A stretch of DNA of 64,000 nt, from positions 1 through 64,000 of IMG/VR virus record IMGVR_UViG_3300045988_037736. One strand, written 5' to 3'. The notes beneath the pieces are model-generated. The model did no database searches, was not told where the DNA came from, and saw only the letters and a program-made list of their open reading frames with translations. Shown one piece after another: positions 35,771 to 63,013 of this stretch. Source of the DNA: a virus. The stretch's first letter is position 1, and each line of letters begins with the position of its first letter. Both the position numbers and the translations under genes were made by a program.

Positions 35771-35817
35771 AAAAAGGGTAGTGAGAATTAACTCACTACC
35801 CTATTTTTTTTTTTTTC
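35771..35817. terminator. bidirectional intrinsic terminator between convergent genes
   Basis: An 11-bp stem 'agggtagtgag/ctcactaccct' with a 6-nt loop. It is flanked by an A-run on one side and a 13-T run on the other. Confidence 0.7.
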
Positions 35818-35825
35818 AATTAGTT

Positions 35826-38800: not shown

Positions 38801-41800
38801 CCTTTACCTGCTCCTTTGCTTCAGCAGTAAATGAAGGTGCATTCTCTGCAACTCTTAAAGCTACTTCAGCGGCTTTACCAACCTCCTCATTGCTATTTTC
38901 AATGAATGTGTCTATAACAGAACTAGGTTGGGTTACTTCAATAGGAGTTTCTACAGGAGTAACAGGAGTTTCAACTTCACCCTGCTCAACCATATCAGAT
39001 ACTGTAGGACTTCCAACTCTTTCACCATCTTCAGTAATATGTCCTGCTTCAGGGGTACTACCTCCAATGTCAAATATAGTTGGACCAGATGGAGTAGGGT
39101 CAGGAATTGCAGCTGGCTCTGAGGCTTCAACAGGAGTTTCAGTTGGAACAACTTCCTCATTATTAAGGTCTCTTTGTTCTCTTTCTGAGTTATACCTGCC
39201 CATTATATCTCTATAGGTTTGAATGGTCTCTTCTATAGAGTTATAGCCTGTAATCTGCCCTTCAATAGGAGCCTTCTCATTTGCTCTTGCAAGATGCTGT
39301 TCAAAGTAAAGATTAACTTCTCCATCCTCAGCAGCATCCCTATCATAGTCAAGTAGCATTTCAGCACCTGCTTCAACATCAGTTACATCAACTCCACTAT
39401 TACTTAGATAGTCAAGAGTAGCTGCAAAAACATCAGCTCTTGGGTCATTCTCTTCAAAGACTCCATTCCTTTCAGCCCAATCATAAATCTCTGACTTTCT
39501 TTCATTCTCTCTAGAGTATCTTTCAAACATATCTCTAGCTTCCTGAGGGAAATCATACCATTTACCCTTGTAAGACTGATTGGTAAGCATATCTTCTACA
39601 GCAGCTATTTCAGCTTCATCCCCTCTATTATAAATATCATCAAGTCTTTCTGAGAATTGCCAATAGTTACCATTAGTTGCTATATCAAGGAGTTCCTCAT
39701 TTTTCTTCTGTAGCATTCTCTGTTGTGCTTGATGTTTAACCTTTGCCACATACCTATTGAGGGCTTTAGGGCTATACATAAGAGCAAACTGAGAGTTCAT
39801 AGCAGCTCTATAGTCTCTTTCAACTCTATTCCTATCTGCAATCTTCTTGGTAAAGTCTTGATGTATAGAAGTACCTACACTATTAACTTTATCAATTTCA
39901 GCTTGCTGTTCCTGACTATATCTATCTCTATGCTTTGGGTCAAGCATAAAGGCTCTATCACTTGCAGACAGAGACATAATCTCAGAAGCAGAAAGAACTG
40001 TAGTATCTACAGGGTCATTATATGTAACACCATCCCTCTCTACTGCCTGATGCTGAGCATTGAAACTGTAGTCTTCCTGAGCAGACTTTATAGACTTGAT
40101 GTTTCTATCAAGTTCTCTAGCATAGCTTTCAGCCATAGCAAGAGTAGCTTGGTCTTCCTGTGAAAGAGAACCTCTCTTCTGCTCTCTCTTCATCTCTCTT
40201 ACAACTTGGTCAAGTTCAGACTTCTGTTCTTCAAGTTTAGAGAGTTCAGTTACAGCATTACTTAGTGAGCCAAACCTTGCTATAAGTCTCCTTCCTTTAT
40301 TATTGAGAGCTGAGCTTGGAGTAGCATCTTCCTGTGAGTTAAGTTCAGTTGTTACCTCAGCTATTTCTTCATCAAGTTGACCTATCCTCTTCTTATAGTC
40401 CTCAATAACTACCTTATTAAATACCATACTTGCCTTAACATCCTGGTCAATATTCTCTCCAAATATCTTCTCAATAGACCTGGTTTCTTTTGAAACCATA
40501 TCCATCATGTCAAGCATTTCATTGGCATTTCTCTGTATAGTCTGAAGGGCTTCCTCTCTACTTATGTTCTGAGTTCTGTTCTGAGCTGATGCCATGAACT
40601 GTTCAACAGCCTTTGATTCCTCTGACTCAGGGTCTTGCAGATTCTGAGCATCAAAGTTTGCCCTTGCCTGTAGGTTAGCCATAACAGCTTCATGATAACC
40701 AGTACCTTCAAGGTCATTAAGAGTTATAATGTTACTAAACATTTGACCAACTCTTGCATCTCTTGCAGCCTTTTCATCATTACTTTCTATAGCCTCTTGA
40801 TATTGAGTAAGCCATTCAGCAGTACCTCCTGCATTAAATAATGCTCTCTGCATACTTTCATCAGAGAAGTAGGTATTAAAGTGTTCAGCCATCTTCTCCC
40901 TCTGCTGATTGACAGCATTGATTTCAGTATTTGAGAATAAAGGAGTAAAGGCACTTCTCCAAGTAATACCCTTTGCAGTCATATTACCATTAGCACCTTG
41001 TTTCATACCAATGTTAGGTCCACCCATTGCAGTGGATAAAGCACCATAGACACCACTCTTTATAGCATCAAAGGATATAGCTGTATTACCTGCTGCTTGT
41101 AGACCTGCTGCAAAGGATTGCCAGAAGTCATTCTGAGCTGCTGTAGCTCCAGGGTTTGCACCATATTTATTGTCAATATACTGTTGCATTTTGTCTTCAG
41201 CATATGCCTGACCAAATGCACTAGATATATCCTGTGTGTACTCTTCAAAGCCTTCACCTAAAGCCTCCTTAAGCCTACCCTTAAAGGCTTGACCCTTAGT
41301 CATCTGTCTTGCTTGAGCTACCCATCTATCTCCCTGTCTTGCTATATTAACTGCATCTCCTACAGAGTTATTTCCTCCTATACCAATCTTCCTAAGAGCA
41401 TTCTGAACTCTTGGAGCTTGCTGACCTGCCTGCCATGTAGCATTGACCATACCATTTATAACAGAGTTAGTCCAAAAGTCATAGTACATAGCTGTGTTGG
41501 CACTTTCCTCGGCAGCTTGTCTATCTGCTGCCATATCAGCAGCATACTTTCCTTCAAACTGTGCTCTAGCTTCAGGGTTGGACTTTAAGTAGTCTGCTTG
41601 TTCCTGAGACATATTATGCTCTCTAGCATAGGCATCAATATCAGCATCTACCTTAGAAGCATATCTATTCTGAATATCTGTTTCAAGACCTTTCAGAGTT
41701 TCCTGTTTGGTCATAGCAGCATTCATGCCACCTTCAACTGTGCCTACTGCACCTGGAACAAGAAGATTTCCTATGTTCCTTGCCTTAGTCACTCCTCTTA

Positions 41801-42998
41801 GGAAGGATACTCCTTTTGCTGAAGCATTAAGAGTCTTTCCTCCCATAGCTACTTTTCCTAGCCAAGCAGCTCCTTTAGTAGCTGCATTAACAGCAGCAGA
41901 GCTACCAAATGAGAGGATAGTAGAGGCAGCAGTAAAACCATACTGACCAAATAACTCAAAGGGTGTATTAGCTGAAAATAAGGAGTTCTGTTGCTCAACA
42001 GTATTAAAGATAGGATTGTCAGATAGTCCAAGACTCTCCAATCTCTCTTGCTCCGATGGTGACCATGAGTTAGTAGTTGCAACCCTGTCACCATATCTAG
42101 TTACAGCATTATCAATTACATTCTCAAGCCATGACTCATCATCTTCAAGACCTATACCTACAGCACCACCTATCATACCAGCAGCTCTGATAATCATACC
42201 AGCAGCACTGTCAATAAACTGAGCACCAGAGTTCCATGTTTTTTCAAGGAATGACTGATTGTTTGCTACTGTATTTTGATAGTAGTTACCAAGAGCCTTA
42301 GCAGCAAACTGACCTCCACCAACTGCTTCATTAGCAAGATAGGAGGCAAGAACCTGCTTTCTCTCCTCTGTAGACATTGATAGCTTATCTGTACCATTAT
42401 ACTCCTTATACATTGGAGAAATTTCTCCTGAGAAAGAATCAAGGTCAGTCAGGTACCTTTCTAGAGTCTCTGAGTCTAGGGCATTAAGCTGGTTATAGTA
42501 GGTATCATATAGTTGGGCAGACTTATTCTCAAGATAGGAAAAAGCCTGCTCCCTCATAGTATCTCCTCCTGTTAACTTAGCATCAATTAGGGCATACTTG
42601 TAATCAGGGTCAAACAGGAACTTCCACACAGAAGTGGAAGATTCCTGTAAATCACTCCTAGCATCAAGGTCAGATGCTAGAGCCTTCTTTGCTACATAGT
42701 CATCTCTCTGTCCTTTCGTAAGAGAGCTTCTGCTGTTGAATATCTGTTGGTCTTCTTCACTGTTACTATTGCCAAATATATCCATGAATACTGTGTTCCT
42801 AAAGTAGTTATCTTTTTGAACATCATCCATTCCTTGAATTTCTCTAGCATACTGCTTCTCCCATTCAGCCCTATCATCTGCACTAAGACCGGTCAGTCCC
42901 GAAAAGTAGGACTGATTATACCTTTGCTGTAGAGTCTGTTGTGACTTCTCTGAAGGAAGAGCAAACATTCCAGTGGGACCACCCGCTAATATAGGCAT
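35826..42998 (-). CDS. giant virion/cargo protein (2390 aa)
   Basis: It has coiled-coil-rich and Ala/Pro linker regions and no in-frame TAG. It ends in TAA. A possible PD-(D/E)xK-like segment is 'ILAYDGKGNFYIFDMKT'. Confidence 0.4.
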   Translation of the reverse strand: MPILAGGPTGMFALPSEKSQQTLQQRYNQSYFSGLTGLSADDRAEWEKQYAREIQGMDDVQKDNYFRNTVFMDIFGNSNSEEDQQIFNSRSSLTKGQRDDYVAKKALASDLDARSDLQESSTSVWKFLFDPDYKYALIDAKLTGGDTMREQAFSYLENKSAQLYDTYYNQLNALDSETLERYLTDLDSFSGEISPMYKEYNGTDKLSMSTEERKQVLASYLANEAVGGGQFAAKALGNYYQNTVANNQSFLEKTWNSGAQFIDSAAGMIIRAAGMIGGAVGIGLEDDESWLENVIDNAVTRYGDRVATTNSWSPSEQERLESLGLSDNPIFNTVEQQNSLFSANTPFELFGQYGFTAASTILSFGSSAAVNAATKGAAWLGKVAMGGKTLNASAKGVSFLRGVTKARNIGNLLVPGAVGTVEGGMNAAMTKQETLKGLETDIQNRYASKVDADIDAYAREHNMSQEQADYLKSNPEARAQFEGKYAADMAADRQAAEESANTAMYYDFWTNSVINGMVNATWQAGQQAPRVQNALRKIGIGGNNSVGDAVNIARQGDRWVAQARQMTKGQAFKGRLKEALGEGFEEYTQDISSAFGQAYAEDKMQQYIDNKYGANPGATAAQNDFWQSFAAGLQAAGNTAISFDAIKSGVYGALSTAMGGPNIGMKQGANGNMTAKGITWRSAFTPLFSNTEINAVNQQREKMAEHFNTYFSDESMQRALFNAGGTAEWLTQYQEAIESNDEKAARDARVGQMFSNIITLNDLEGTGYHEAVMANLQARANFDAQNLQDPESEESKAVEQFMASAQNRTQNISREEALQTIQRNANEMLDMMDMVSKETRSIEKIFGENIDQDVKASMVFNKVVIEDYKKRIGQLDEEIAEVTTELNSQEDATPSSALNNKGRRLIARFGSLSNAVTELSKLEEQKSELDQVVREMKREQKRGSLSQEDQATLAMAESYARELDRNIKSIKSAQEDYSFNAQHQAVERDGVTYNDPVDTTVLSASEIMSLSASDRAFMLDPKHRDRYSQEQQAEIDKVNSVGTSIHQDFTKKIADRNRVERDYRAAMNSQFALMYSPKALNRYVAKVKHQAQQRMLQKKNEELLDIATNGNYWQFSERLDDIYNRGDEAEIAAVEDMLTNQSYKGKWYDFPQEARDMFERYSRENERKSEIYDWAERNGVFEENDPRADVFAATLDYLSNSGVDVTDVEAGAEMLLDYDRDAAEDGEVNLYFEQHLARANEKAPIEGQITGYNSIEETIQTYRDIMGRYNSEREQRDLNNEEVVPTETPVEASEPAAIPDPTPSGPTIFDIGGSTPEAGHITEDGERVGSPTVSDMVEQGEVETPVTPVETPIEVTQPSSVIDTFIENSNEEVGKAAEVALRVAENAPSFTAEAKEQVKALIEGLSANSFDTVQEFADAITARANAMDGRAEANETQVPDLLRHVVAKVLKSQSDEKKIDTPSPRVDAPVSPFFDKRRRAIRTQARKMNYQFIVGNPESGMITSMNIAYLRQSHPDTPIVRYYDKYGIEDALRDGVLTRDSEVMFITDDALTDEVKSNMESKGFGYTENDLPIIAVVESSNGPITINVDGQDKHFQPVSVMSATGVEYSPGSKNMAPIRSLAVGNTGTSLVKNTDGSPVVTKLLKPIVAATSFDSSRRGQENNNVLDVGQNDLSEQDKGTPMGYQKAKRNFLKRLGIVKVGDNRKKIVFHQDKLNGGTQPIDIFIAPVQRTQNKEGQTVSQVRDSVDGLINFNSRTRRAAKTIANFIETFSDEEMSFTRDSSGQVVPLGDTEKLLNSMANTIENQISNYMNVPSKSGWHYSVTATDQVADGKKVYSIDLVNDDGSITPIHLTTVYQGMTEEASKAAQHEFLKNLLTDESGEVRMANERDSFIKWQVPFSDVERAAEGDNAAKKNLSDIYDDGFLEVSPTNVSFNYIIQGIALQSPFKSDGSPVYTTVANPTNASPASPVNEPVVVPNGQVVRGDTVIDSDTGTVVQGESAPAANPAAERAKEIVDRIVDDSKSITLADDGSGYVDSKGTRYARVTSIIAADEEAGERFDPNSPWVTPSTNIGTGIDEFVRDFFAGVATDFSKYPNATPEALQKFAEQLTVLKNNLEVNGLTVVPRDVTVTGQVEVADSNGKVHTINVAGTLDILAYDGKGNFYIFDMKTNRSGIDQHKREKYARQLSLYKDFLERKYGVQVKALNIIPIGVSYPAPAGWRNGTADYSVSPEKDNQLLIDGREYTEANPVLQETIAVPYKPLRIVYDRLTDAEKAMVSGIEETLNEGTGVVEAPVEPVTPIEAQVADSVDMTVDPTLGIAVDMSIGEGLFEDDFTGGMGWDLGGRLTPIPHHLQWNNLTQEQRDGLAAKHIDEVSWSQMEDQEMEQELGCL

Positions 42999-43021: not shown

Positions 43022-44410
43022 TTACATACCACTAGATGCATCATCATCTGCTACTGTAGCAGGGGTTGATGAGCTACTCACCTTAGGAACAAGCCAGAAG
43101 TGGTCATCTACAGTTGTCTGTGTCTTCACAGCAATCTCTATCTCATTTACATCATAGCCAGTTCCTGCCAATCTTCTCCTTACATACTGTTGTTGAGTAG
43201 GACTCAACTGACTAAATTGTATATATTGGACATCTCCTGGGATAACATAACCTTCTTTATCCTCCTTATCCCCTCTAGAGTCAGGATTAGAAGCTTGTGC
43301 ATTATCTGCTCTCCAGTGAATGTTACCTAATGGCTTTCTTTGCGCTTTAGCTTTTGCAACTTCAGCAGCTGTTGGAGTAGGTGTTGGAGTAGGTGTTGTA
43401 GATTTCCATGTTACTCCATCAGACTGTAAAATTTCAGTCCATTGCAGCTTACCATTACTATAGAATTTAGTCTTGCCATCAGCAGAAATATAATAAGGTT
43501 TAGCTCCTGAAGCAATACTATCCTTCTCCTTAGCATACTCAAACTGGTCTCTTTGTAGCTGTACTGAGGCTGCTTGATTAGCAAGAGACTGTCTTTGTGC
43601 AGCATTGATATACTCGCCATTCTCAGTAAACTGATAGGTAGGCTTAGCAAGACCTGCATACATACCAGTAGTAACACTACTTAGAACTTGCTGTCTTGCA
43701 GCATCTCCCCAATCAGCAACATTGGCAAGTTCATCATCCATTATCTGTCTGAACCCTTGTAGCTTTGTTCTAAGAGCTTCTGATATATTTGGATTATTAA
43801 GCTGGTCATTTACTACAGCATAGAACATCTCAGGACTCATGCCATTCTGCTGAGTTATCTGATATTTCTGACCACCAAGAACTGTCTTAAATTCAGGGTC
43901 ACTGAATAATGACTTACCTAATGCTTCTGCTTTTGCAGATGTTCTTGCAAGTATATCCTTACCACTTACATAATCCTCACTTACTGTCTTTCCATGTAAG
44001 AAATCATCAAGGGAGAGATTCTCAACCTTGAATATAGCTGAGTTATCTCTTGCCCTTGTATCTCTCCTATATTTTATAGCTTCCTGTCTGGCAGCATCTG
44101 CTCTTGCAATAGGAGTAATCTCCTTTGCATATCTTCTTTTGAGACCAAGGAGCTGCCTTCTGTTAGCCATTGTCATTCCTCTACTGAAGTCATCAGTAAC
44201 AGTTTCTAAATCCTTAGCATATCTACTAAACATTGCATAGGCTTCAGGACTATTCTCCTGTGTTGCAATATCTCTGAATGCCTCAGTCTGAGTTGCAAGA
44301 TTTGCATACTGCTCTTCAGCTTCATTATAAGCTTTGGTGTAATCCTCTAGAGGCTTTACCAGCTGCTCATATGTAAAAGGATTAAACCTACTATTTACAA
44401 CTATATTCAT
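43022..44410 (-). CDS. hypothetical virion protein (462 aa)
   Basis: It contains a 'TPTPTPTPT' linker. It is separated from the upstream gene by TAA in the same frame. Confidence 0.35.
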   Translation of the reverse strand: MNIVVNSRFNPFTYEQLVKPLEDYTKAYNEAEEQYANLATQTEAFRDIATQENSPEAYAMFSRYAKDLETVTDDFSRGMTMANRRQLLGLKRRYAKEITPIARADAARQEAIKYRRDTRARDNSAIFKVENLSLDDFLHGKTVSEDYVSGKDILARTSAKAEALGKSLFSDPEFKTVLGGQKYQITQQNGMSPEMFYAVVNDQLNNPNISEALRTKLQGFRQIMDDELANVADWGDAARQQVLSSVTTGMYAGLAKPTYQFTENGEYINAAQRQSLANQAASVQLQRDQFEYAKEKDSIASGAKPYYISADGKTKFYSNGKLQWTEILQSDGVTWKSTTPTPTPTPTAAEVAKAKAQRKPLGNIHWRADNAQASNPDSRGDKEDKEGYVIPGDVQYIQFSQLSPTQQQYVRRRLAGTGYDVNEIEIAVKTQTTVDDHFWLVPKVSSSSTPATVADDDASSGM

Positions 44411-44413: not shown

Positions 44414-47104
44414 TTAGAATGTTAAACCTCTTTTCTTTCTTTTAATCTTACCACCATAAGCTTCCTTTTGAACAGGAGCATAAACTCCATGTCTACTAGC
44501 CCATGTTCTCCATTTTCTATCAACTTTCTCCCTACCAATATCTCCAAGAGAACTGAAGATGTTTGATAAGTTATCAGAGATAGCTTGTTCTCTTGCAAGT
44601 CTAGCTCTTGACCTTATATCAGCAGCAGCCATTGTACCTCTTAATGAGAAGTCTCTAGCTCTTGATAATGCTTCTTGGTTGGCTATATCAGCTTGCAGGA
44701 ATCCTTGGGAGTTCTGAATATTTGTACCTCTATTGAACTCTTCAACTTGATTCCTTTGAGCAAGGTTATATTCTTCAGCCTGTCTTGCTAAAGCACCAAG
44801 CTGGTTTAGATAGTTATTATCAGCAGCAAGAATGCCTGCCATTGCAGTGGCTCTGTTACCTCCTGAAGTATTTAGTAGAGACCTTCTTGAGGCACCTGCC
44901 TCTGCATTCATCTTGTTAATGTAGTAATCCCTATCAAATGGTCTATAAGTTAGGTAGTTACCAATAGGTCTATACCTTACAGGTCTGTAAGCACCTTTAC
45001 CACTGCTTGCTTCAAGTATGGCTGAGACATCACCATCATCAGGCTTTGTAAACAATGAAGTTCCAAGACCTATGGCAGAGCCTAAGATAGGCATATACCT
45101 CATCCAATTATCATAGTTGGGGTATTCACCTCCATTATCAGTAAGGTCAGGGGCTTTCTCATCAGTAGGAGCTACAGCAGGTCTTTCCTTATAGAATAGG
45201 TCTGTATAATCTGTATCTCCTTCACTACTTGTTCCTGTCCTTACATACTGATATGTTCCAGTTGTTGGGTCATAGTCAGGAATAAGTAGGTCTTCCAAAG
45301 GAGTGCCACTAGCATCTGTTCTTCCTGTAAGATACATCCTCTTACCAGTCTTTCTTGGAGCTACTGGAACTGGACTACCTGCAAGGTCTATTCCTGCGTG
45401 CATACCACCCCAACTCTTGTCAGCTGTCCTTGAAGAGAAGATGTCTTTGGTAAGACCCTCTAGAGTAAGAGGCACATATCCTCTTCTTCCTTCATTATAC
45501 CTATTAACTGATTCAACATACCTAGGTAGCCATTGATTTACCTCATCACTTCCCCAGTTATTGATGACATAGTTCCTTCTTGTCATAAATGGAGAGTTAT
45601 CTCCATACATAATATCCCAGTCAATAGAGCCATTTGACTTATAGGGATTGAATCCTTCTTGACCAAAAGTAAGACCTGGAGTAGAGTTATTATAATTGAG
45701 AGTCTGCATCCAGCTACCTGTTTCATACAGGTGACCTCCTCTCGCAAACTTTCTCTCTTCTTTTCTTTCCCTTACCTGCTCCTGTACTTCCATCAACTTA
45801 GACATGCTGTCTATCATTCCTGCCCTACTTATAGGGTCATTAGGCCTCTCTTCAGATTCTTTGCTCATTTGAATAGCAGCATCTGCAAAGGTGAGAGGTT
45901 TTGTTCCTCTTAGTTTATATTTCTTTCTTACTGCTTTTGGAACTCTTAGTCTGTTACTAAATACATAATCATTGAAGATAACTTCTCCCTCTTCTACAAG
46001 GTTAGGAATGCCTTCAGCATCCATTCCCATAGGAACTCCTTCATTAGGGTTTTCTTCATGTGTACCTCCATTACCCACAAGAACAAGTCCTGTATCAAAG
46101 TCAGCTCCATGTGTCATAAGGTCTCCTCCAAAGGCATGATGCCACTTAGCAGCGTTCTAAGCAAATATAGCTCTCTTTCTAGTTAAAGGATTTTTACTAT
46201 GGGTTAATTCCTCTGTAGTCTTTCCTGTTCTCTTCTTAGTAGCATTGAACTTACCTCTATTCTCTGGGTTAATATGTATTCCTCCACCTTCTGCAAAGTA
46301 CAATGGACCTCCATATGAGGCTATGTTTCTAAGTATATCCCTCTTCCTAGTCTATCCTATATTATACTGTGCATTTTCTAAAGAAGAACTAACATATTGC
46401 CTAGCAGTATCAGCTCTTTTGCTCATATCCTAATATAAATCATCTATATCATGACTAAATGCACCCTAACTGCCTAAATCATCATGATTAAAGTATCCAA
46501 CTGTTGGAGCAGTAGCCATCTCCTAAGCTAAAGCATCATAATCAGTAGCACTTGATTTAAACTGTCCAGCCTGGGATATTTGATTATTTAAAGAACTTAT
46601 AAGTTTTTCATTTCTTTCAGAACCAAATAAGTTATTAGTAACTCCTCCAAGTAGCTAACTTGCTCCCATTACTATACCCCCAACCATTGGGTTTACAGAC
46701 ATTAAGGCTCCACCTACAGTTGAGCCTATACTACTAATTCCATTTCCTACTGCACTAGACCTTTTTCCTCCAATTACATTACCTACAATTGAACCAGTTA
46801 AGGCACTTCCTAGTCCTATACCCTGTTTGCCCAATTGAGTAAGTCCTAAGGATGGATTAGTAGTTCCAGATGGTGGAAGAGGAAGGGTTGCTGAAGCAGC
46901 AGTTGGTTGAGTAGTTTTAGTAAGAGCTTGCAGCCCTGTTGATATAGCTTCTCCAGGCATAGTTTCTCTAATACCAGGCATAGAAAAAGCATCATCCATA
47001 CCTGGTATTCCAGCTAGATAATCAGGAGTACCTCCCCATGCAAAATAATTATTCCTCCCAAAAAGGAGTTTATTTGTTCTTTTTTTAATAAGTTTCTTTG
47101 CCAT
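44414..47104 (-). CDS. large structural protein read through 6 in-frame TAG codons (~896 codons)
   Basis: The 149-aa and 567-aa ORFs are in the same frame. The 537-nt spacer 46118-46654 contains TAG at 46157, 46352, 46430, 46466, 46523 and 46655 as its only stops, with no TAA or TGA. The N-terminus is Gly-rich. It ends in TAA. Confidence 0.5.
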
Positions 47105-47167
47105 CTAAATGAATTTTGTATGCAAATGTAGCAAAAATATCCCACTAATACAATAGTATAATACAAT

Positions 47168-47209
47168 TAATTAAAAAGGTGTAAGGTTTTTCTTACACCT
47201 TTTTAATTA
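47168..47209. terminator. long perfect hairpin at the 3' end of the TAG-containing tail-fiber-like gene
   Basis: A 19-bp perfect stem 'aattaattaaaaaggtgtaag/cttacacctttttaattaatt' with a 6-nt loop 'gttttt'. It is AT-rich on both sides and overlaps the TAA stop at 47207-47209. Confidence 0.6.
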
Positions 47210-50200
47210 CATAGAGTACTTAGTAGATACATTATATATTGTCACTCTCTAGTTTTTATGTGAGGCACTCCCTAGAGTTATTTCACTCCATGGATTTCTA
47301 ATCCTTGCCCTACCATAGTGCCTTATAACATCTTTACCATCTTGTGCTACATAAGGAGACCTAGGAATATTAATCCTCCATATATTAAACTTCTTCCTTA
47401 TATCTCTACTATTAGTGAGGTCAGTATAAGCTTTCTAATAGTCATTCTCTGCTTGGATAAAATCAAATGGCTTATCAGAATTATCCTTTTGGTCAAAGTT
47501 CCGTACTTCAGCATTAACTTCCACTGTGTCAAAAATTTTTGTGTAAGGAGAATTACCATTAGATATATAAGTGAAACTAAATGGTTTAAAGTTACCATAG
47601 AACTCATTATATACCCCAGTGAAGTTCTCCCATAGCCTAACTTTATCCTATTCCTATTTTATAGAGTAAAAACCACCTTCAAAGTCAAACATACCTTCAG
47701 TTTCACCATAACTTAAAAAGGAAGTGAACTAGTTAAGCTTAGTTGAGAAACATAAAGCTTCTTCGCCATGAGCTGGAGAGAAATATACATCCCCATTCAT
47801 ATTATCAACAAAGCTTCTTACTCCCATTCCTGTAGGAGTCCACTCTGATAAGTCAACATCATTCTTAACCCACTAACTCATTCCTGAAAGCTCACTTACA
47901 TTTACTAATTCCTAACCATATCTATAAATACTTTTGGACTCGTTATCTATGAAGAATAGACCTGTTGAGGTAGGAATAATAGACCATTTATTAGCACATC
48001 CAATAGTAGAGGATAGAATCCTGAACCCATCTACTCTGTTTGAATTTCCTATCTCAATAGGTACTCCGTCTGTAGGATTGAGCTATACTCTAGAATTAAA
48101 CATAATCTAGCTAATAGATTTTTCCTAGAAGCCAATAAGAGTATCATTGATGGAGGTTAGACATGTTACAGACCCTTTATCAGCAGGAAGGTCTAAGGTA
48201 CTAGCTAAAGTGACATTAGTCCATGGGTCAATTATAGACTAGGGATTTTTCTTTAAGGACCATGCTACCTAGTAAGGAAATGTATCTATTTTATAATAGT
48301 CCTTGTCTAGTGTTCTGTAGTTAAAGAAGTTATCTAACTAAGAGTATACTTCATTTATCTTATAAGAGTCAGGAGTAATGTCGAAGTTGGATAGCTGCCC
48401 TCTTTTAGTATCGTATCTTCCATCAAGATTAATATGTGACTCAAGCATAAATGAACCTATTTCTACTATCTAATTAGTATCATCATCTGCAAAAGGATAA
48501 GTCTTTACACAATCATATCTTGTACACCATGTATCCCCATAGGCATAAGGAATCGTAATTATCTTATGTGGAGTTGATACAAGAGGAACTGACTCACTAC
48601 TTGGAACCCATAAGTTATTTTTGATAGCTTCATCCGATTTACCTCCAAACCTAGTGTCTGGGTCAACCCACTATGTTAATTCAGCTATAGGTAATGTGGG
48701 GGAATAATCTTTATCCTCTTCAAGTAACTACAGAGTGCTATTCTGGATGGTAAACGTATTATCTGTATTATCTGTAGATGGCTCTGAATACATTTTATAA
48801 GATGTAATACCAACTATATTTCCGAGAGATACCTTTAAGTTTAATAATACCTAATCCCCAAGATACTAAAAGTTATCATGACCATCCTGTAAGTTTTCAA
48901 AAGGACCCCATTTTATTGGCCCCGCATTCTGAAGAACTCCTACCCACTCACCATTTACATAGTGATGATAGATTATACATCCTTTCTTCACTAAAACAGT
49001 CACTTTAGTTCCTGAGTTTTGTACCTGCCAATACCCTACTTCTCCTATCTTTACCCTTTTAACCAATACACGCTTAGCTATGGGTCCAATGTAAGCCATT
49101 ACAATCTGATAGGTTCCTAGAGCAGTCACACTTGTATCGTCAACATCTAGTACTAAGTTCCCCTCTTTGTTATAAGTCCCATAAAAGGTTTTTGAGCCTA
49201 TAAATGAAAGGATAGGATATGAAGTACTGGTAGAAGTATTATTCTCCCATCCAGAGGGGGTATACTATGAAGTTATAGTCTCACCAGTAACAGAAGTGTA
49301 TGGTAGTACTGGAATAACCTTAGGGTTATCCTCATCATATAAAGAGAATACTAAGTGAGGAGATGATTTATACTTCATTCTTACTGACTCCCCAGAAGTA
49401 GGTACATTAGTAGGGGATACTTGTGAAATACTATCATCAGTACCAGCATAAATAGGATAAGCTGATGTGGCTGATACAATATCATCTACATTTCCAAAGT
49501 ATAGTACATCCTAGTCTAAATGTGGAACACGAACAGTTAAGCCTGTAACCTCTTTAGAAGAGAATAACTTAGGAGTTGTAATTTTAATATTGTGGTTATT
49601 AGAGTTAAAAAAAGTTGACTTACTTTCAAAATACTTTAAATTGGAAATAATCTTCCATTTTAGTATAGCTGTTCTATTTCCGGATTTCTCTATAATCTCA
49701 GGAGACCTGACAATATCATTATTTAGTGAGCCTGTTCTATGCCAAGGATAAACTAAATATTTAACAATACCTGTCTTATCATCATCTAAAAAATCCCCTC
49801 TTAGTATTTTATCTTCAAAACAACATGATGATACAAATCCTCCATTAACAGTAGTATTAGGAGTAGTACAGTTCACTGGAAATCCTACAGGATGATGTAT
49901 AAATCCTCCAGCCTGAGAACTAGCTTTAGAGGTCACTGCTAAATCTATATCTCCATACAATCCATGTAGGCTAGCGGCTCCAACAATATTTAGCCTTGCT
50001 CCTTCTAATTGAGTAGTATTTATATAGGACCCATACTCAATTTCTGGGGAATGTAAAGTAACTAAGTTACTATCAACAGCAAAAGTTGAATAATGAGACT
50101 TTATACCATCAGAGGGAGAAATAATTTCCTATATTGACTTATTGGAATCTCCTGGCAGAGATGACTATATTTCAGCACTTCTATTACCTCCACTGAAAAG

Positions 50201-51676
50201 TGTATAATTATGTTTATACTAAATAGTCGACCCCTAATCTATCGAGGTAGAGGTTTCTTTTGGCTTTCCATCTACATATACAGGAGATGGCCTAAAGAAC
50301 CAAGATGACATTGCATATGGGTTATTCATGTGCCTTCCTCTCACACTGTAGACAGTAGGATTTAAAACTCCCTAACATATAATATTTCTCTCCGCTGGCT
50401 TAGGGAAAACAACACAAGTTCTAGCCCTTCTTACTCCAGCTTTTAATAATGAGGCAGTTGCATTAGGGAATAACTAAAGTTCCTTAGTATCCACCCCGTC
50501 AGTAGTGCCCCAAAAATATGAATTATTTAACTCTACATCAAGAAAACCATCACCATCACCATCACTATTCCTTATGACTTTGTTTAATGGAATAGGTTCT
50601 GACCATTCTCCAGTCTTAAACTAAAATTGAACTCCTAATCTATATGTTTCTCCTGCCTTAAAATGACCAGGCTTAAACTATGGTAGATAAGGATAGTATT
50701 TATTTATACCCTAATTATCATAAGTATCTTCGGCTAAAAAACAATCTGTTAACCCTAAAGAGTCCCCATTTTCAGCCTCTTCCTATTGAAGTAATGTAGT
50801 TAGTTCTTTAGTATTTTTCTGAACAGTAATGTTTCCATAAAACATCACTCCTTCTTTGCTAGTGATAGTTCCAGCTAATATTGTTTGTCCCCCAGTATAT
50901 AATAGTTTAGCAGGGTCTTCTATTGAACCAGTAAGACCAGTATCTGTATATTCAATTGTTTTTACCAGCTAATCCTCAGAACCAAACACATCATACCAGT
51001 ATTCTCCTTCAGCACTTTCCTCCTAGCAATCTTTTAAGTCTAAGTCAGCTACAATCTTAACTGTAGGCTATGCGTCTAGTGAAGTTCTATGTATAGAATA
51101 AACCCTTATATAATCAAAGTTATCAACATTTTCTACTTTAATTGTGAAAGAAGTTATAACCTTCTCTTCTGGATTACCAGCTCTATCATAATTCCTTATA
51201 TACTATATGGGAGATACATAGAATATGTTACTTTCTTGCCCATACTTATTAAAGTATGTAAGAGCATATTGAATTACTCCAGGAGAAAATTCTCCATGAC
51301 TGGAACTTCTACCTACCAGTACTCTTTCTTTTAACTATAGGTTCTATACAAAATCAAATGGAGACTCAGCTCTGTATATCCAATTTCCTTTTTCATACCA
51401 CTTTTCTAGATTTTCTATAACTTCCTAGGAAACTCCCTCACTTTTCTATGGATTTGAGAAATTAACTCCGTCTACTATAACTTTACTAGCTATATCTTCA
51501 GGAAGTTTCAACTCTGGGGCAGTTATATTAATAACTCTAGGCTGGTTAATTCCATCTGTCCAATACAACTTATTCACAAGAACTGACTCACTATCCCCTA
51601 ATATTTCTAGAGGGTGATTAGCATCAAGACCTAGCACTCCTTCAAATAGAGTAACTTTAATCCACTCCCCTTTATC
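47207..51676 (-). CDS. very large tail-fiber/tailspike-like protein encoded with 39 in-frame TAG codons
   Basis: A single frame is open over ~4.4 kb (1477 codons). The only in-frame stops are 39 TAG, and it ends at TAA 47207-47209. It joins the track fragments 51446..51637, 49511..49960 and 48866..49129. The start is unresolved, because two in-frame TGAs lie upstream at 51677 and 51713. Confidence 0.5.
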
Positions 51677-51712
51677 TTCATGGAGTCTATATATTCTAGA
51701 TACTTCCTGAGT

Positions 51713-52024
51713 GTCATTCTAACTTACAGTAAATACTACTAAGTATCTATTAAGCACACAATGTCCTACGTACTACCCATCAAAAACAACACCAGTGTCC
51801 GTATTTCCCTTCTCATTAGTGATAGAAAACCCAGTATCACTATCCCTATTAGTAAGTCTCACATTTAAAGCATCCCATAAAAAAGACTCATCTTGTCTTG
51901 ATGGGTGAACATCTCTCCTTAGGCCTTTAAATATATGATTATCTGAATACATCATGTTAATATAATTAATGAAGTTTGATATACTCCTTAGAACCAAGAG
52001 TTTTAAACCCTTTGCTATGCTCAT
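51713..52024 (-). CDS. small hypothetical ORF, boundaries uncertain
   Basis: The 83-aa track ORF ends with TAG at 51773. It would extend 20 codons to TGA at 51713 if the TAG is read through. It overlaps the upstream gene's end. Confidence 0.2.
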
Positions 52025-52664
52025 TAGTCCTGGAGATTAAAGTATTCCAAGAATTAGTGAAAGATTGGAGTTGGTCAATAGAGGGCCTAACAAGGTCAGA
52101 CTGAGCTTGACCCACTGCCCAAGCATATTGTTGTTCTGCGTGTTGCAGAACCTGTTGAGTTATCCTACCAAGCTCAAACTGAACTGTAAAATGTTTTACC
52201 TTTATAAATAGCTCAAGTGCTTCCTCAAAAGAACCATTCTCTGGTATGAGAGGGAATCCTTCTTCATCTGTCGAGAAAGCTCTATAAGCTACTTCTATAG
52301 TTCCTTCCTTCATAGAAGTAAAAATACAACTTCCCTGTAGTTTATAGGTAAGGTCATTATCTCTTGTCTTATCAGGACTCATATGAAATGAATCAGTAGA
52401 GTATCTGAATACTTCATGAAGTACTCCATTACAGTTATGACCAACTGCTCTTACCTGTATCATTTCATAGAAGTCACAAGGTAGCTTACCTCTATAATTC
52501 TCTATCTCAACCTTCTCTGTTTTCTCAAGGAATATTGAGGGCATACCTACCTTCTGTATGAACCTGACAGCATAATTGACTGCCCTTTCTAAAGATAAAT
52601 CTTGTAGCAAGGGATTATCCATCAGGTTATCAAGAACTTGTCTTATGCTTATATATTTTGTCAT
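51966..52664 (-). CDS. hypothetical protein
   Basis: 232-aa ORF ending in TAA. Confidence 0.4.
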   Translation of the reverse strand: MTKYISIRQVLDNLMDNPLLQDLSLERAVNYAVRFIQKVGMPSIFLEKTEKVEIENYRGKLPCDFYEMIQVRAVGHNCNGVLHEVFRYSTDSFHMSPDKTRDNDLTYKLQGSCIFTSMKEGTIEVAYRAFSTDEEGFPLIPENGSFEEALELFIKVKHFTVQFELGRITQQVLQHAEQQYAWAVGQAQSDLVRPSIDQLQSFTNSWNTLISRTNEHSKGFKTLGSKEYIKLH

Positions 52665-53185
52665 ATCTTAAAAGCATCAAAGTTACCACTTTTAATTCTT
52701 TGCTTCAATCTCCTTTTAAGGTCTCTGTTCACTACAAATTCATAGAGGGATTTATTGTTGTAGTCTGCATCAATCCTGTTATAGTAGACCTTGAAGATTT
52801 CTTTTTCCTCCATTTTAATGAGTGTTCTTTCCTTATAGGCTTCCTCATCTTCTGACCATAGTTTAAGTGTTCTATCCCAGTCAATAGGAAGATTAGTCTT
52901 TACCTTTCCCTTCTCAACTGAGATTCTTACATCATACTTCCTTATCTCTATAGTACCCATTCCACATGGTAACTTTATATCATGGCCATGTATAAGTGAC
53001 TCGGCAAGAAGATTATTTATCCTTCTTATAATAGAGTAGAACTGATGTTCTGTAATAGGCTGTCCTATATCAAACCATTTGTTCTTTCTGATATACTTGT
53101 AGGCATCATATACTCCATATGAGTTATTCACTCTATAGACTCTTGACTCACTTACTTTAAGTACCTTCTTTCTGAACTCCTCCAT
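52661..53185 (-). CDS. hypothetical basic protein
   Basis: 174-aa ORF ending in TGA, with overlapping coupling to its neighbours. Confidence 0.35.
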   Translation of the reverse strand: MEEFRKKVLKVSESRVYRVNNSYGVYDAYKYIRKNKWFDIGQPITEHQFYSIIRRINNLLAESLIHGHDIKLPCGMGTIEIRKYDVRISVEKGKVKTNLPIDWDRTLKLWSEDEEAYKERTLIKMEEKEIFKVYYNRIDADYNNKSLYEFVVNRDLKRRLKQRIKSGNFDAFKI

Positions 53186-53864
53186 ATTTGAACTTGTATC
53201 CTCTGCAAAGCTTACCAGTCCTGCAACACTTACTTAACCATGATTTATCTACTCCTAGAGCTAAGGCTGCTTCTGTAGCTGATTTGTACACAGCTAGTAC
53301 TTCTCCCTCCCTATCAAGCATTTGTACAATCTTAGACATTGGTGAGTTCTCAGATATTTTCAACCTTTCACACATAGGTCTTTTCCTACCAAGATTTACT
53401 TGTCTAAGACATTCCTTTTGTTTCTCACTCATTTTCCATCCAGAACCTCTAGATGATTTTCCTCTATGGGCTATACTCAACTTCTTCTTATGAGATTCTG
53501 TAAGAGTACATCCCCTTCTCTTATTGGATTTTTCATAAGGAATCTTAATTCCTTTATTCCATGGGACATTCCCTGTGCATCCCTCCCCTCCATCTGTAAT
53601 ATTGAGACTAATCCCTAAATTCTTGTAATAGGCTATATATTGTTTCTCTCTATTTATAGCGTCTTGTTCTGTCATTCCAGTATAAAGTATTTCATGAGTT
53701 ATATTGTCCCATCCATACTTTATTATACTATTCTTAAATGGAGAGTTCTTACAATTAAAATACCCTTTACCATTATTCCATCTATGAAGAGGATTTTGGC
53801 TAGTTATGCCTATATATACTTTGCCAGATGGAGTAGTATGTTTATACAAACAATATTCTTTCAT
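53157..53864 (-). CDS. GIY-YIG homing endonuclease with NUMOD3 repeats
   Basis: The GIY-YIG core is 'CLYKHTTPSGKVYIGIT...RWNNG'. Basic NUMOD3-like repeats are 'KKKLSIAHRGKSS' and 'KQKECLRQVNLGRKRP'. Confidence 0.65.
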   Translation of the reverse strand: MKEYCLYKHTTPSGKVYIGITSQNPLHRWNNGKGYFNCKNSPFKNSIIKYGWDNITHEILYTGMTEQDAINREKQYIAYYKNLGISLNITDGGEGCTGNVPWNKGIKIPYEKSNKRRGCTLTESHKKKLSIAHRGKSSRGSGWKMSEKQKECLRQVNLGRKRPMCERLKISENSPMSKIVQMLDREGEVLAVYKSATEAALALGVDKSWLSKCCRTGKLCRGYKFKYGGVQKEGT

Positions 53865-54617: not shown

Positions 54618-55286
54618 TTAACTACTATATTTCCATATAAACCCGCCAGAGGTTTTGTGCTCCCCATTTAGGCATTTATACAAGGAAGCTTCAGCTATAC
54701 CAGTACATAAACTAGCTTCCTTAACTGAAGGAAAGGACTGTATCAACTCTTCTTCTAAAGAAAACTGTAGTACGCCCTTTATGGTTTTAGCCTTTATTAT
54801 CTTATCAGACCAAGTACAGGGTCTTCCTTTCAGAGACTTACTGATATTATTTCTCCATTCTTCTGTAAGCTTTACTCCCCTACGAACTAATGATAGCTTC
54901 TTTTTAACCTCATCAGTTCTCTTCTTTCCTCTGTTAGCTATAGAAATTCTATTTTTGGACTCTGTAGAAAATTTGTAGCCAACGGTGGAGTCCCCTCCTA
55001 TTGTGCAATTATATCCATGCACATAAGAGTTATATAGTCCTATGTAATATACTTCCAGCTTGTCAAGTTCTTCTTTAGCCTGCTTTTTAGAACTAAATAT
55101 TCTCTTTTCTAAAACTTCATATTTGAAGGACTCCAAACCATATTTAATTCTAGCCCTATTTATTTTAATTCCAGCATATGGCCCGACAGTGTTCCAATGC
55201 TCCCTTCGTATTTTCTCGTTAGTAGTCTGACCTATGTAAGATTTTCCACTTGGAGAAACATATCTATATATAACACCTTCAACCAT
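54618..55286 (-). CDS. GIY-YIG homing endonuclease with NUMOD3 repeats
   Basis: The GIY-YIG core is 'GVIYRYVSPSGKSYIGQTTNEKIRREHW'. Repeats are 'KNRISIANRGKKRT', 'KKKLSLVRRGVKLT' and 'RNNISKSLKGR'. Confidence 0.65.
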   Translation of the reverse strand: MVEGVIYRYVSPSGKSYIGQTTNEKIRREHWNTVGPYAGIKINRARIKYGLESFKYEVLEKRIFSSKKQAKEELDKLEVYYIGLYNSYVHGYNCTIGGDSTVGYKFSTESKNRISIANRGKKRTDEVKKKLSLVRRGVKLTEEWRNNISKSLKGRPCTWSDKIIKAKTIKGVLQFSLEEELIQSFPSVKEASLCTGIAEASLYKCLNGEHKTSGGFIWKYSS

Positions 55287-57906: not shown

Positions 57907-58680
57907 TTATCTACTTTGAGTTACAATACCCATATTAGTCTGTGATGTCTGACCAAGAGCAACCTGTGAAGTAAGGTCTCCAATATAAGCAGCCTTAGCT
58001 AGCTCACAAGCTCTTTGAATAATCTCTGGAAATAGTATTGGGTCAAGCTCACAACATTCCTCACTACTCTCACCTCCTATAGTAAGACCGTCAAATGTAC
58101 TTAGTCTAATAGCTTTAGGACGTCTAACAAATCTATAGGTATAACTAATTAAGGAATCCTAATATCCTAAAATTAATTCAACTTTCTTTCTATTACTGTC
58201 AGAAATAAGCAATCTCCAAGCTTGGTTTTTTAGAGGATATTTGTAAGGTTTGCTAGTGAGTCTATTATACTCCAAGTAACTAATAGGGATAACAGTTAAT
58301 CCAGTTTCGTTATTACCTCTCTAAACTGTAACATACTCGTTGATAAACATGAATATATCATCTTGAAGGATGATACTTTTACTGCTTTTTCTATTGTCAA
58401 AGTGTGCATCTAAAAAAGAGTCTGCATCTGCTATTGTACGGTCTCTCATGAGCATAGAGAAATCAATCTACCTTATCTCACTTCCGTCAAAACCTTCTTG
58501 AGACTTATTAGTTTTTGGACTAAAATAAGCTTTTACTACTTCATCTTGAGCCTTAGTTAGAAATACAGACTTCTCATATTCATCCAAACCAGGAGCCTGA
58601 TTACTTGTAATGCTGTTGTAAATTATATCAAACTCATTACTAAATTCCTAATTTCTTATTCTTCTTTCTTCCGCAGTCAT
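57907..58680 (-). CDS. TAG-containing paralogue of the preceding gene (257 codons, 4 in-frame TAG)
   Basis: The frame is open from ATG 58678 to TAA 57907. Its only stops are TAG at 58648, 58468, 58321 and 58159. It translates to 'MTAEERRIRN*EFSNEFD...LDEYEKSVFLTKAQ', homologous to 57209..57904. Confidence 0.5.
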
Positions 58681-58719
58681 AAGGTTTTCAATTTGCGACA
58701 TGTAACTTAAAGATTAAAG

Positions 58720-59115
58720 TTACTGCCTTAACTTAGCCTCAAGAGAAAATTTAATTTCTTGATGCTTGGGATTATTAAGATACTTGGCTGCTATGTTGAG
58801 TGTAGGTTCTTCATTAGCTTCACATAATGGGGCATTATCACTCCTTAGATATAGATAATTTCCTCTATTAGAGATAAGACCTGCTTCAATAGCTTTCCTA
58901 ATAAGGACTTTGGTAGGAAGCATTGGGTCTGTAATAGCTCTAAGGAAGATTTTACTATCTGCTTGGATAAGGTCATTAGCCTTGGTCTGTAAGAACTCAA
59001 GCTTAGATGTAGAAGCAAGGGGTCTACCATCAATAGTTTCAATGATGACTCTCAGTGTATCTGCATCTTCCTCTATCTTACCAAACTCCTTATAGCACTT
59101 CATTGTAGTACTCAT
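58720..59115 (-). CDS. hypothetical protein
   Basis: 131 aa, ending in TAA. It is in the same frame as the upstream ORF, separated by one TAG and 24 open codons. Confidence 0.35.
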   Translation of the reverse strand: MSTTMKCYKEFGKIEEDADTLRVIIETIDGRPLASTSKLEFLQTKANDLIQADSKIFLRAITDPMLPTKVLIRKAIEAGLISNRGNYLYLRSDNAPLCEANEEPTLNIAAKYLNNPKHQEIKFSLEAKLRQ

Positions 59116-59187
59116 GTTAACCTTAGCATTCTTAGTTTCATCACCTTCAGAAATGATTACAAACTGATAGCTTGCCTTGGGAGCATC

Positions 59188-59715
59188 CTATAGTGCCTCA
59201 AGTGAGGGAGCAATATAGTTCTTATTAGCTAGAAGAATCTTATATCTGATATAATCTTCTGGGTCTGCCAGATTAAAATAATTATCTTGCTTGGTAAGTC
59301 TTACCCTTGAGATACCCTTATCATTTGTGTCATCCCAGAAGTTATCTGTTTTTCTATAGATAGATAGAGCATTTACCTCAAGTCTCATGATATGTTCAAG
59401 GAAAGCCTTTTCATCATCTGTCAGTACATTCACGTACATACCTGAGCTTAACCTAGGTACTGTAAATGTCTTGGTAGCATTCTCGGCCATACCTCCATAG
59501 AGTATATGTTTGGGATTAGTAATCATACCACCAAGCTTGGGTATATGTCTCACAATGATTCTTTCATTTCTTAAGCAGTTTATTAGCTGCTTTGGTGCTC
59601 TTCTTGCGGGCTGTTCCTCAACTATAGGAACAACTTTTGGCACCTCTTGTAGAGGCAACTCATCAGATAGGTCAATCTGAGCTACATCTATTTCTTCCAT
59701 ATTTTTCTTTGCCAT
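59188..59715 (-). CDS. hypothetical protein
   Basis: 175 aa, preceded by AAGGAG. Its TAG stop at 59188-59190 may be read through into 58720..59115. Confidence 0.35.
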   Translation of the reverse strand: MAKKNMEEIDVAQIDLSDELPLQEVPKVVPIVEEQPARRAPKQLINCLRNERIIVRHIPKLGGMITNPKHILYGGMAENATKTFTVPRLSSGMYVNVLTDDEKAFLEHIMRLEVNALSIYRKTDNFWDDTNDKGISRVRLTKQDNYFNLADPEDYIRYKILLANKNYIAPSLEAL

Positions 59716-61557: not shown

Positions 61558-61566
61558 TTCATATCT

Positions 61567-62475
61567 CTAAATGGCAGTAAGCATTTCTCCTGTCTCAGGG
61601 TCTTTATATACAGGCTTGGCAAGATTGTCATATATTCTTTGTCTTGTTGCCTTGTCAACTTCTACATCACCAAAGACTTTCTTCTCAGTGAGAATAGATG
61701 TTCTCAGCTTCTCAGCCTGTTCCTTCCTCTTTGCTACTTCTGCCTCTTCCTCTTTCTTGGCATCTTCAATTACTTCCTCATATTTGGACTTGAAGTATTC
61801 CTTGTTGCTTTTCAAAGCCTCTCTTGCATCATCTACATCAGTACCTCCATTAAGGGATTTCTGAACTTCTCTTGAAGCTCTTTCCTTACTGTAACCCCTA
61901 TTAATGAAGTCCTGATATATTAGCTGTTTCCTCAGCTTCTCTCCTTCATCAGTCTCAGCTGCAATAGAGTCATCCTTGATACTGTCAAGATAGTTGATGG
62001 CACCTTCATACTGCCTGATAGTATCAGGTTCCACTCCAACATTGAGAGCCTCATCAATCCTCTTCTGTCTTTCATCAAGACCAGCTTTAATCTGTTGCTC
62101 TACAAGCTCTCTTAAGTCTTCAGGAGTTTCTACTTTAGAAATGGCTTCTTCATCAAGGTCTGGGAAGATACCTTCCTCTGCAAAGGCTTTGGCAATGGAA
62201 GAGTAAATTTTGGGAGAAGTACTGCCTTTGTCAGGGTCAGTATCTTCCTTTTCCTCTGTATCTCCACTACCTACGCTCTCTGGTTTGTCTGTAAACAAGG
62301 AGTCTACATTAACCTCAGTAGTTTCTTTTTCTTTCTTTTCTTTGCCCTCTACGAGCTCATCTTCTTTTTCTTTACCTGTATCATCAGGTGCAGGCTCCTG
62401 TGATGTGTCATCATCTATGAACAGGTTCTCTACCTCAGAGCCTGTCAGAATGTTATCTAGTGATAGTTCTTCCAT
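61567..62475 (-). CDS. scaffold-like highly acidic/charged protein (302 aa)
   Basis: It is Glu/Lys/Asp-rich with predicted coiled coil ('EKEDELVEGKEKKEKETTEV...'). It sits directly upstream of the putative major capsid gene. It terminates with TAG (61567-61569). Confidence 0.35.
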   Translation of the reverse strand: MEELSLDNILTGSEVENLFIDDDTSQEPAPDDTGKEKEDELVEGKEKKEKETTEVNVDSLFTDKPESVGSGDTEEKEDTDPDKGSTSPKIYSSIAKAFAEEGIFPDLDEEAISKVETPEDLRELVEQQIKAGLDERQKRIDEALNVGVEPDTIRQYEGAINYLDSIKDDSIAAETDEGEKLRKQLIYQDFINRGYSKERASREVQKSLNGGTDVDDAREALKSNKEYFKSKYEEVIEDAKKEEEAEVAKRKEQAEKLRTSILTEKKVFGDVEVDKATRQRIYDNLAKPVYKDPETGEMLTAI

Positions 62476-62862: not shown

Positions 62863-63013
62863 GTTCCTTTCCAGTTTCTCAAAGGTTTCTTTGTCAGGCT
62901 GAAGCTCTTTAAGTTCAGTGACTATCTCAGTCTTCTATTTCTCATCTACAGTGTAATATATTACTACATCCCAGTCATACTTCCTTATCTTGAACTGCTG
63001 CCTGAGACCCATA

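Follow-up and report, generated by a model that had tools for sequence, protein, structure and literature searches.

We analyzed a late gene on the minus strand of a 64,000-nucleotide stretch of viral DNA (IMG/VR record IMGVR_UViG_3300045988_037736, positions 1 to 64,000; hereafter the window), in which TAG is the only in-frame stop codon. Very probably this is the intact muzzle gene (MUZ) of a crAss-like phage whose UAG codons are read as glutamine late in infection by a phage-encoded tRNA with the anticodon CUA, tRNA(CUA). The phage is a human-gut crAss-like phage with a genome of roughly 101 kb; two Logan contigs of roughly 101.4 kb contain parts 100% identical to the window. By similarity of the major capsid protein (MCP), it falls near Steigviridae/Asinivirinae and is related to PhicrAss001 and cr85_1: its MCP is 78-80% identical to those of both phages, and cr85_1 is classified in Steigviridae, Asinivirinae. 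A megablast search with the 44-53 kb part of the window found no match among INPHARED phages, and the genomic context was established by protein-level searches. Sequence beyond the window includes contig ERR636403_27182, which carries locus L001, 100% identical to the window where the two overlap, and locus L022.

From its ATG to its TAA (Table 1), the muzzle gene comprises 1582 sense codons, among them 40 in-frame TAG, with no TAA and no TGA. The frame bounded by TAA or TGA extends from 52036 to 47207 on the minus strand (1609 codons, 40 TAG), and each of the remaining five frames contains 64-183 TAA and TGA codons over the same stretch. Judged from base composition, log10 of the probability that 1582 codons contain neither TAA nor TGA is about -40, and the chance of finding TAG at every one of the 40 stops is about 4e-23. 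A preliminary description of this DNA had recognized a long minus-strand gene ending at this TAA with TAG as its only in-frame stop, and on these points it was right. It had placed the beginning of the gene near 51637, giving 1477 codons with 39 TAG, whereas we count 38 TAG in that range and find the gene to be longer. It had also left the start open because it placed two TGAs, at 51677 and 51713, in the frame of the gene. Neither TGA is in that frame: the first belongs to caTGAa and the second to aaTGAc, and the codons in frame there give L-H-E-D-K and S-TAG-N-D-T, respectively. Because these upstream stops do not exist and the encoded N terminus matches that of homologues, the start is resolved at the ATG at 51955, which lies 10 nt past the TAA of the ring protein 1 gene (51968-51966). 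At 0.349, the GC content of the gene lies below the window average of about 0.39; neither value is the approximately 36% given before.

Table 1. Coordinates of the muzzle gene, its neighbors, and the TAG-related features of the window.
Feature	Position	Strand	Remarks
Muzzle protein gene (MUZ; PhicrAss001 gp44 homologue)	47207..51955	-	Based on codon counts, Pfam, PDB match, and homologues
Muzzle start codon ATG	51953..51955	-	N terminus MMYSDNHIFKGL agrees with homologue N termini
Muzzle stop codon TAA	47207..47209	-	Read from the sequence
Divergent low-GC, TAG-rich cassette	46314..51812		blastn breakpoints versus L128, per-gene identities, GC drop
Ring protein 1 gene	51966..52664	-	PF24228; 0 TAG; 89-92% identical to standard-code relatives
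Cargo protein 1 gene (CARG1; gp45 homologue)	44414..47104	-	896 codons; PF25725, E=4e-57
Cargo protein 2 gene	43022-44410	-	0 TAG; 33 Gln codons, all CAA/CAG
2390-amino acid cargo gene, at the position of the gp47 RNA-polymerase-associated protein	35826-42998	-	0 TAG; 133 Gln codons, all CAA/CAG
Ring 3/4 paralogue	57907..58701	-	PF25710; 4 TAG; 57-61% identical to relatives, neighbors 77-94%
MCP	59778-61292	-	0 TAG
Single TAG, CARG1 residue 316	46157-46159	-	Conserved gene part; CAG in relatives
Single TAG	59188..59190	-	Gene 58720-59715 (92-94% identical); CAG in 3/3 standard-code relatives
Single TAG	61567..61569	-	Gene 61321-62475; CAG in 3/3 standard-code relatives
Single TAG	62935..62937	-	Gene 62611-63099 (98% identical); CAG in both aligning relatives

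Translated with TAG as glutamine, as had been suggested, the gene yields a single protein that matches the Pfam family crAss_MUZ (PF25731) with 796.5 bits (cutoff 27; E=7.8e-239) and, at residues 1447-1532, crAss_MUZ_C (PF25729) with 57.7 bits. It also matches the solved gp44 chain of PhicrAss001 (PDB 7QOK, 7qok_A; E=2e-214), with query residues 5-1573 aligned to residues 5-1362 of the 1371-residue chain. The alignment consists of four collinear segments, the one at query 839-885 being weak, and extends over all the TAGs. A large protein collection contained 2833 muzzle homologues, and both muzzle domains were found in all 120 of those listed; the best match was 99% identical, its source entry having already been translated with Q at the TAG sites. 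Identity to most muzzle proteins is about 35-40%, rising to 50-53% for the nearest homologues.

The neighborhood agrees with this assignment. The gene order Ring1-MUZ-CARG1-CARGO2-giant cargo gene is the same as in relatives (L030-L032): the muzzle gene lies between ring protein 1 (PF24228) upstream and the cargo proteins (PF25725, PF25712) downstream. The upstream late genes encode Ring 1, Ring 2, the tail hub proteins THA and THB, an auxiliary capsid protein, Ring 3/4 paralogues, and the MCP. Thus, the Pfam matches, the collinearity with gp44, and the crassvirus tail and cargo neighbors identify the product as a muzzle protein and not, as first thought, as a tail fiber or tailspike. The PhicrAss001 muzzle, a hexamer of ~1 MDa with six copies in the virion, sits at the tail tip, where it gates cargo ejection and probably contacts the cell surface; as a virion component, the muzzle is essential and conserved in Crassvirales (PMC10172136).

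Under the standard code, the longest muzzle fragment has only 206 codons, and standard-code gene calls on some contigs give pieces of 59 and 149 amino acids annotated as crAss_MUZ. Such fragments are what would be expected of a decayed pseudogene, or of separate short genes ending at the TAGs, with no full-length protein made. The preliminary description had dismissed decay, and our data bear this out. Over 4.7 kb, there is not a single TAA, TGA, or frameshift; the collinearity with gp44 bridges every TAG; and TAGs stand at invariant glutamine columns of an essential protein (PMC10172136). Moreover, the same 40 TAGs are kept in a 98.9%-identical muzzle allele from an independent IMG/VR assembly (IMGVR ..._064014). 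With no mixed stops, no frameshifts, and no lost conservation, the pseudogene and separate-gene readings are effectively refuted, and we give them practically no weight.

The identity of the amino acid encoded by TAG was assessed in a MAFFT alignment of the muzzle protein with 119 non-identical homologues. Glutamine accounted for 34.7% of the residues at the 40 TAG columns, as compared to a background of 3.3% and to 34.3% at columns of genuine CAA/CAG codons. At six TAG columns (residues 445, 528, 1206, 1229, 1277, and 1507), glutamine was present in 119/119 homologues, and at two further ones in 118/119 and 114/119. Because some homologues are themselves recoded, we also compared standard-code relatives. 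In their muzzle alleles, CAA/CAG was the commonest codon at the TAG columns. Four isolated TAGs fall where whole genes or parts of them share 86-98% identity with standard-code relatives, and at these sites the relatives had CAG in 11/11 comparisons, which points to single C-to-T transitions. The assignment of TAG to glutamine in this gene is thus well supported by sequence comparison, in line with the earlier proposal that TAG is a sense codon here, most plausibly glutamine, as in other recoded Bacteroidota phages. Within the muzzle gene, TAG makes up about two thirds of the glutamine codons (40 TAG versus only 22 CAA/CAG).

A candidate decoder is encoded in the same genome. ARAGORN detected no tRNA in the 64-kb window, and the first flanking loci contained no suppressor tRNA. 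Walking outwards through IMG/VR loci and an endolysin anchor led to L022, where an array of 21 tRNAs occupies positions 7203-11922 (about 82-87 kb in window coordinates, minus strand). It includes a tRNA with the anticodon CUA at L022 11284-11356, about 82.3 kb in window coordinates. This tRNA is encoded on the late-gene strand, roughly 18 kb past the high-coordinate end of the window and transcriptionally upstream of the late genes. Among the other 21 tRNAs of the phage, the closest is tRNA-Gln(UUG): 23 of the first 26 nt, a stretch that includes the D-arm, are identical, and the two tRNAs also resemble each other at their 3' ends. Over the full length, identity to tRNA-Gln(UUG) is 64.5%, compared with 60% or less for the others. 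A variant of tRNA(CUA) in a related contig has an anticodon-stem difference that appears compensatory. An exact-pattern search of IMG/VR for the suppressor tRNA returned one contig only; being restricted to exact matches, it is not a measure of prevalence.

Several further observations concern the tRNA genes of this phage and its relatives. An endolysin gene (Amidase_2 and PG_binding_1, 0 TAG) and an HNH endonuclease gene lie between the tRNAs of the array, and the opposite strand encodes tRNAs for Arg, Arg, Lys, and Pro shortly before the window begins (L003 604-6197). A more distant relative, L124 (IMGVR ..._123055; TerL 70% identical), has a tRNA(CUA) at 6217-6288 (+) within a tRNA set that is far smaller, with three genes found. 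In the standard-code relative L007 (IMGVR ..._042591), ARAGORN predicted a tmRNA-like gene at 3846-4233 (+) with the tag peptide AEVDYTPVRMAA and several candidate tRNA-like genes with odd anticodon loops.

ARAGORN labels tRNA(CUA) as tRNA-Pyl, and some TAG columns of the muzzle alignment are dominated by residues other than glutamine (Y at 61, W at 1361, R at 1095, and G at 1348), as might be expected if TAG encoded pyrrolysine, Tyr, Lys, Trp, or Leu. We consider this very unlikely. The label is assigned from the anticodon alone, and the columns of genuine glutamine codons show an equal spread of other residues, while no other residue comes near glutamine in frequency at the TAG columns. Near-identical relatives have CAG at all the isolated TAG positions, and proteomics gave glutamine in other crAss-like phages (PMC9523058). 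A pyrrolysine system in particular was rejected: the precomputed Pfam lists for the called genes of the contigs read (L001, L003, and L022) contained no pyl biosynthesis or PylRS family, and the TAG columns are glutamine columns.

The TAG codons are distributed very unevenly. Of 53 in-frame TAGs in the late genes of the window, 45 lie inside one cassette. The muzzle gene has 40 and cargo protein 1 has 6, all within residues 150-316; a Ring 3/4 paralogue has 4, and three other genes have 1 each. None was found in cargo protein 2, the 2390-amino acid cargo gene, the MCP, Ring 1, or Ring 2. Recoding is patchy rather than uniform, with the adjoining large late virion genes free of TAG. The preliminary description had overlooked both this unevenness and the recombined cassette. 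The muzzle is not the sole TAG-dense gene in the genome, as L001 19-3935 (+), corresponding to about 67.4-71.3 kb of the window coordinates on the minus strand, contains four consecutive late-strand open reading frames (ORFs) with 3, 4, 11, and 7 TAGs. These had no PHROG or Pfam match; lying between the portal and MCP regions, they may encode tail or fiber proteins. Nor did PHROGs return a match for five more ORFs with TAG that lie outside the window.

On the plus strand (1-35768), no convincing early or middle gene contained an internal TAG, and these genes could thus be expressed in a naive host. TAG occurred there only at the very 3' end of a few short ORFs, ahead of the probable start of 11807-12973, and once within a doubtful 68-amino acid ORF. 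In five small ORFs (19161-19376, 19339-19773, 19925-20128, 20070-20663, and 21628-21909), a TAG precedes the next TAA or TGA by 1-10 codons, as in the ending ...GNQH-TAG-C-TAA. TAG is probably the real stop of these five ORFs, with the nearby stop as a back-up if TAG is read through late. The distances between TAG and back-up stop are weakly unusual (rough estimate, p of about 0.01-0.04).

Standard-code relatives were found in IMG/VR via TerL and Ring1 anchors; an endolysin-anchored scan gave 80 loci, mostly distant and none from such relatives. Four close relatives are 89-92% identical to the present phage in Ring 1, 93-94% in TerL, and 76-99% in most other aligning late genes. Their muzzle alleles are just 35-39% identical to the present one and contain no TAG, and their syntenic tRNA arrays lack tRNA(CUA) between tRNA-Leu(UAG) and tRNA-Thr. 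Both the 40-TAG muzzle and tRNA(CUA) are present in the window genome and in the IMGVR ..._064014 strain. Thus, with two genomes carrying both and four carrying neither, the co-occurrence of the tRNA and the TAG alleles is perfect in six genomes. The per-gene comparison further showed that it is the TAG-bearing genes that diverge.

The borders of the divergent cassette are sharp. In a blastn comparison with the TAG-free relative L128, similarity is lost at window position 51813 and regained at 46313. DNA identity in the flanks is 80-86%, while the cassette aligns only as one 259-nt patch at 69%. It comprises the muzzle gene from about codon 48 on and the beginning of cargo protein 1, up to about codon 264. 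Sliding identity along CARG1 is 20-40% for residues 1-250 and 74-98% (mostly 86-98%) for residues 301-896. The break in similarity and the shift in CARG1 identity indicate that the cassette has a history different from that of its flanks. From its identity to relatives, the Ring 3/4 paralogue at 57907-58701 seems to be another exchanged segment, smaller than the first. The tail barrel of PhicrAss001 houses the N-terminal ~245 residues of cargo protein 1, and a fragment probably derived from this N terminus binds the muzzle (PMC10172136). Given this location and contact, exchange of the muzzle and the cargo protein 1 N terminus as a unit would be structurally sensible.

We think it probable that the cassette at about 46314-51812 came from a long-recoded crassvirus lineage and was recombined into a nearly TAG-free backbone, as the sharp breakpoints and TAG-free flanks suggest, and that a few CAG-to-TAG point changes arose later in situ. 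The nearest muzzle homologues come from crassviruses with in-frame TAG in most late genes (25-32 in the muzzle, 2-12 in cargo proteins, and 26-38 in the covered part of the giant cargo gene). A donor of the cassette was not found.

Alternatively, the TAGs could have been enriched entirely in situ, with CAG-to-TAG changes piling up in the muzzle gene after the gain of the suppressor tRNA and no foreign cassette involved, for instance because the protein is of low copy number or because its delayed synthesis is advantageous. The four isolated TAGs in conserved genes are clear in-situ changes, so both processes operate. Moreover, in recoded phages the TAG share of glutamine codons is highest in the muzzle (46-56%, versus 26-28% in the giant cargo gene and 0-10% in the MCP), which suggests gene-specific tolerance. 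One beta-group genome, having gained a TAG suppressor, "started to accumulate" TAG codons (Yutin et al., PMC7886860), and the TAG positions shared with the nearest homologues are not beyond chance. However, gradual change alone accounts poorly for a TAG-dense block with 35-39% protein identity between genes that are 80-92% identical to those of relatives, with breakpoints at ~51813 and ~46313 and with a GC content that differs too. Nor does low copy number distinguish the muzzle from the adjacent 2390-amino acid cargo gene, whose product is a low-copy virion protein in PhicrAss001 and which has no TAG in 133 glutamine codons. We thus regard purely in-situ accumulation as unlikely, and import of the cassette as the better explanation.

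For expression of the intact muzzle gene, our data are compatible with the following scheme. Early genes would be translated by the unmodified host, as in the published model of recoded phages (10.1101/2021.08.26.457843; PMC7886860). Expression of the tRNA array would then provide tRNA(CUA), presumably charged with glutamine by the host glutaminyl-tRNA synthetase (GlnRS), and UAG would be read as glutamine, so that the TAG-bearing late proteins, including the muzzle as a single 1582-residue protein, could be made at full length; the timing is borrowed from the published model. The full-length yield over 40 suppressions equals the per-codon efficiency to the 40th power, so that efficiencies of 95% and 99% would give yields of about 13% and 67%, respectively. 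Unless late suppression is highly efficient, little full-length protein would be made, and this would have to suffice for a protein with six copies per virion in PhicrAss001.

Several points weigh against this scheme and against the import of the cassette. The case for glutamine decoding in this phage is drawn from DNA sequence. The overall resemblance of tRNA(CUA) to tRNA-Gln is modest, and the tRNA bears the label Pyl. The Pfam lists showed no release-factor or GlnRS family and no other aminoacyl-tRNA synthetase (aaRS), and neither an antagonist of release factor 1 (RF1) nor release factor 2 (RF2) was seen; the 40 suppressions thus demand either very high efficiency against host RF1 or a tolerated low yield. 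TAG would also have two meanings in one genome, as several early genes appear to end at it, although this would fit the temporal model. Finally, the closest muzzle homologues reach only 50-53% identity, and the positions of TAG shared with them, not exceeding chance, are uninformative for dating the recoding of the cassette, the direction and timing of whose transfer we infer.

Additional features of this genome concern its layout and mobile elements. The strands switch convergently at about 35768-35826 of the window, where the GC and AT skews flip sign; two giant plus-strand genes (24533-31384 and 31398-35768, no Pfam match) meet the minus-strand late block there. Among the ring and tail-hub genes, the ORFs 53157-53864 (-) and 54618-55286 (-) resemble GIY-YIG/NUMOD homing endonucleases, and no counterparts of them were found in L128, L130, and L131, the standard-code relatives nearest to this phage. 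The ThyX (Thy1) gene at window 22436-24268 (+) has a LAGLIDADG-type insertion. The TerL anchor gene, named by position (L022 15394-19905, +), contains an intein and LAGLIDADG insertions, arranged differently between strains (883 amino acids versus 527+346+496 amino acids); the gene has a few TAGs as well.

These results have practical and evolutionary implications. When genes are called with the standard code, this essential virion protein of 1582 residues is split into fragments no longer than 206 codons, and several neighboring genes are truncated as well; thus, this genome needs gene calling with TAG as glutamine, on the late strand only. Forty consecutive amber suppressions set a demanding quantitative constraint on how effectively the phage has to outcompete host RF1, and six closely related genomes that differ in one tRNA and in the TAG-carrying alleles offer a natural comparison. 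Tentatively, and with less confidence than in the import itself, we propose that amber recoding might spread among crassviruses as a portable package, in which the suppressor tRNA lets a standard-code backbone take up TAG-dense host-interaction cassettes from long-recoded relatives, the cassette in this case being the muzzle and the cargo protein 1 N terminus. If so, TAG density would lock such cassettes to tRNA-carrying genomes, acting as a recombination barrier or addiction between code types and as a gate on late expression. The mosaic structure and the co-occurrence in six genomes support this proposal, while the direction, the order of events, and the selective lock are conjecture.

At the protein level, the present muzzle resembles PhicrAss001 gp44 (PDB 7QOK/7QOL/8CKB) in its N- to C-terminal collinearity and its gene neighborhood, and by analogy it presumably shares the role of a hexameric tail-tip gatekeeper at the cell surface. 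It differs in being ~210 residues longer, with the alignment weakest in the middle third, and in its 40 TAGs, as TAG recoding is not reported in the literature for PhicrAss001.

Amber-to-glutamine recoding in crAss-like phages is a known phenomenon, seen here in a new genome. Earlier studies reported TAG-to-Gln recoding in the late genes of crAss-like phages, along with suppressor tRNAs encoded by the phages (PMC7886860; 10.1101/2021.08.26.457843), and metaproteomics confirmed the recoding in two crAss-like phages (PMC9523058). With these amber "code 15" phages, the present one shares TAG in late and structural genes only, standard-code early and replication genes, a phage tRNA(CUA), and TAG read as glutamine. 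In contrast to them, its recoding is very uneven, with 45/53 TAGs in one cassette and no TAG in the endolysin gene of the tRNA array, and no "code-change module" of RF2 or aaRS was seen in the precomputed Pfam lists. What our analysis adds is the concentration of recoding in a recombined muzzle/cargo-1 cassette and the covariation of tRNA and TAG alleles among very close relatives.

Close relatives that differ in code are also known from the Agate phage pairs (Borges et al.), in which recoded codons likewise occur in structural but not replication genes. Those phages belong to another clade and infect another host; they recode TGA to Trp, and their recoded codons are scattered across the structural and lysis genes of an aligned genome rather than gathered in a replaced cassette. 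The nearest precedent is the beta-group genome OFRY01000050, which gained a TAG-suppressor tRNA and, unlike its closest relatives, "started to accumulate TAG codons" (PMC7886860). It belongs to the same phage group and may represent the lineage of the present phage. The situation is alike in both: tRNA(CUA) is present, close relatives have neither this tRNA nor TAG, and conserved genes (TerL region) carry a few TAGs. Those TAGs were framed as gradual accumulation, whereas the present ones lie mostly in recombined, divergent segments. The six closely related genomes compared here show that crassviruses can change their code in a patchy manner and suggest that, besides gradual accumulation, such change can be acquired by module exchange.

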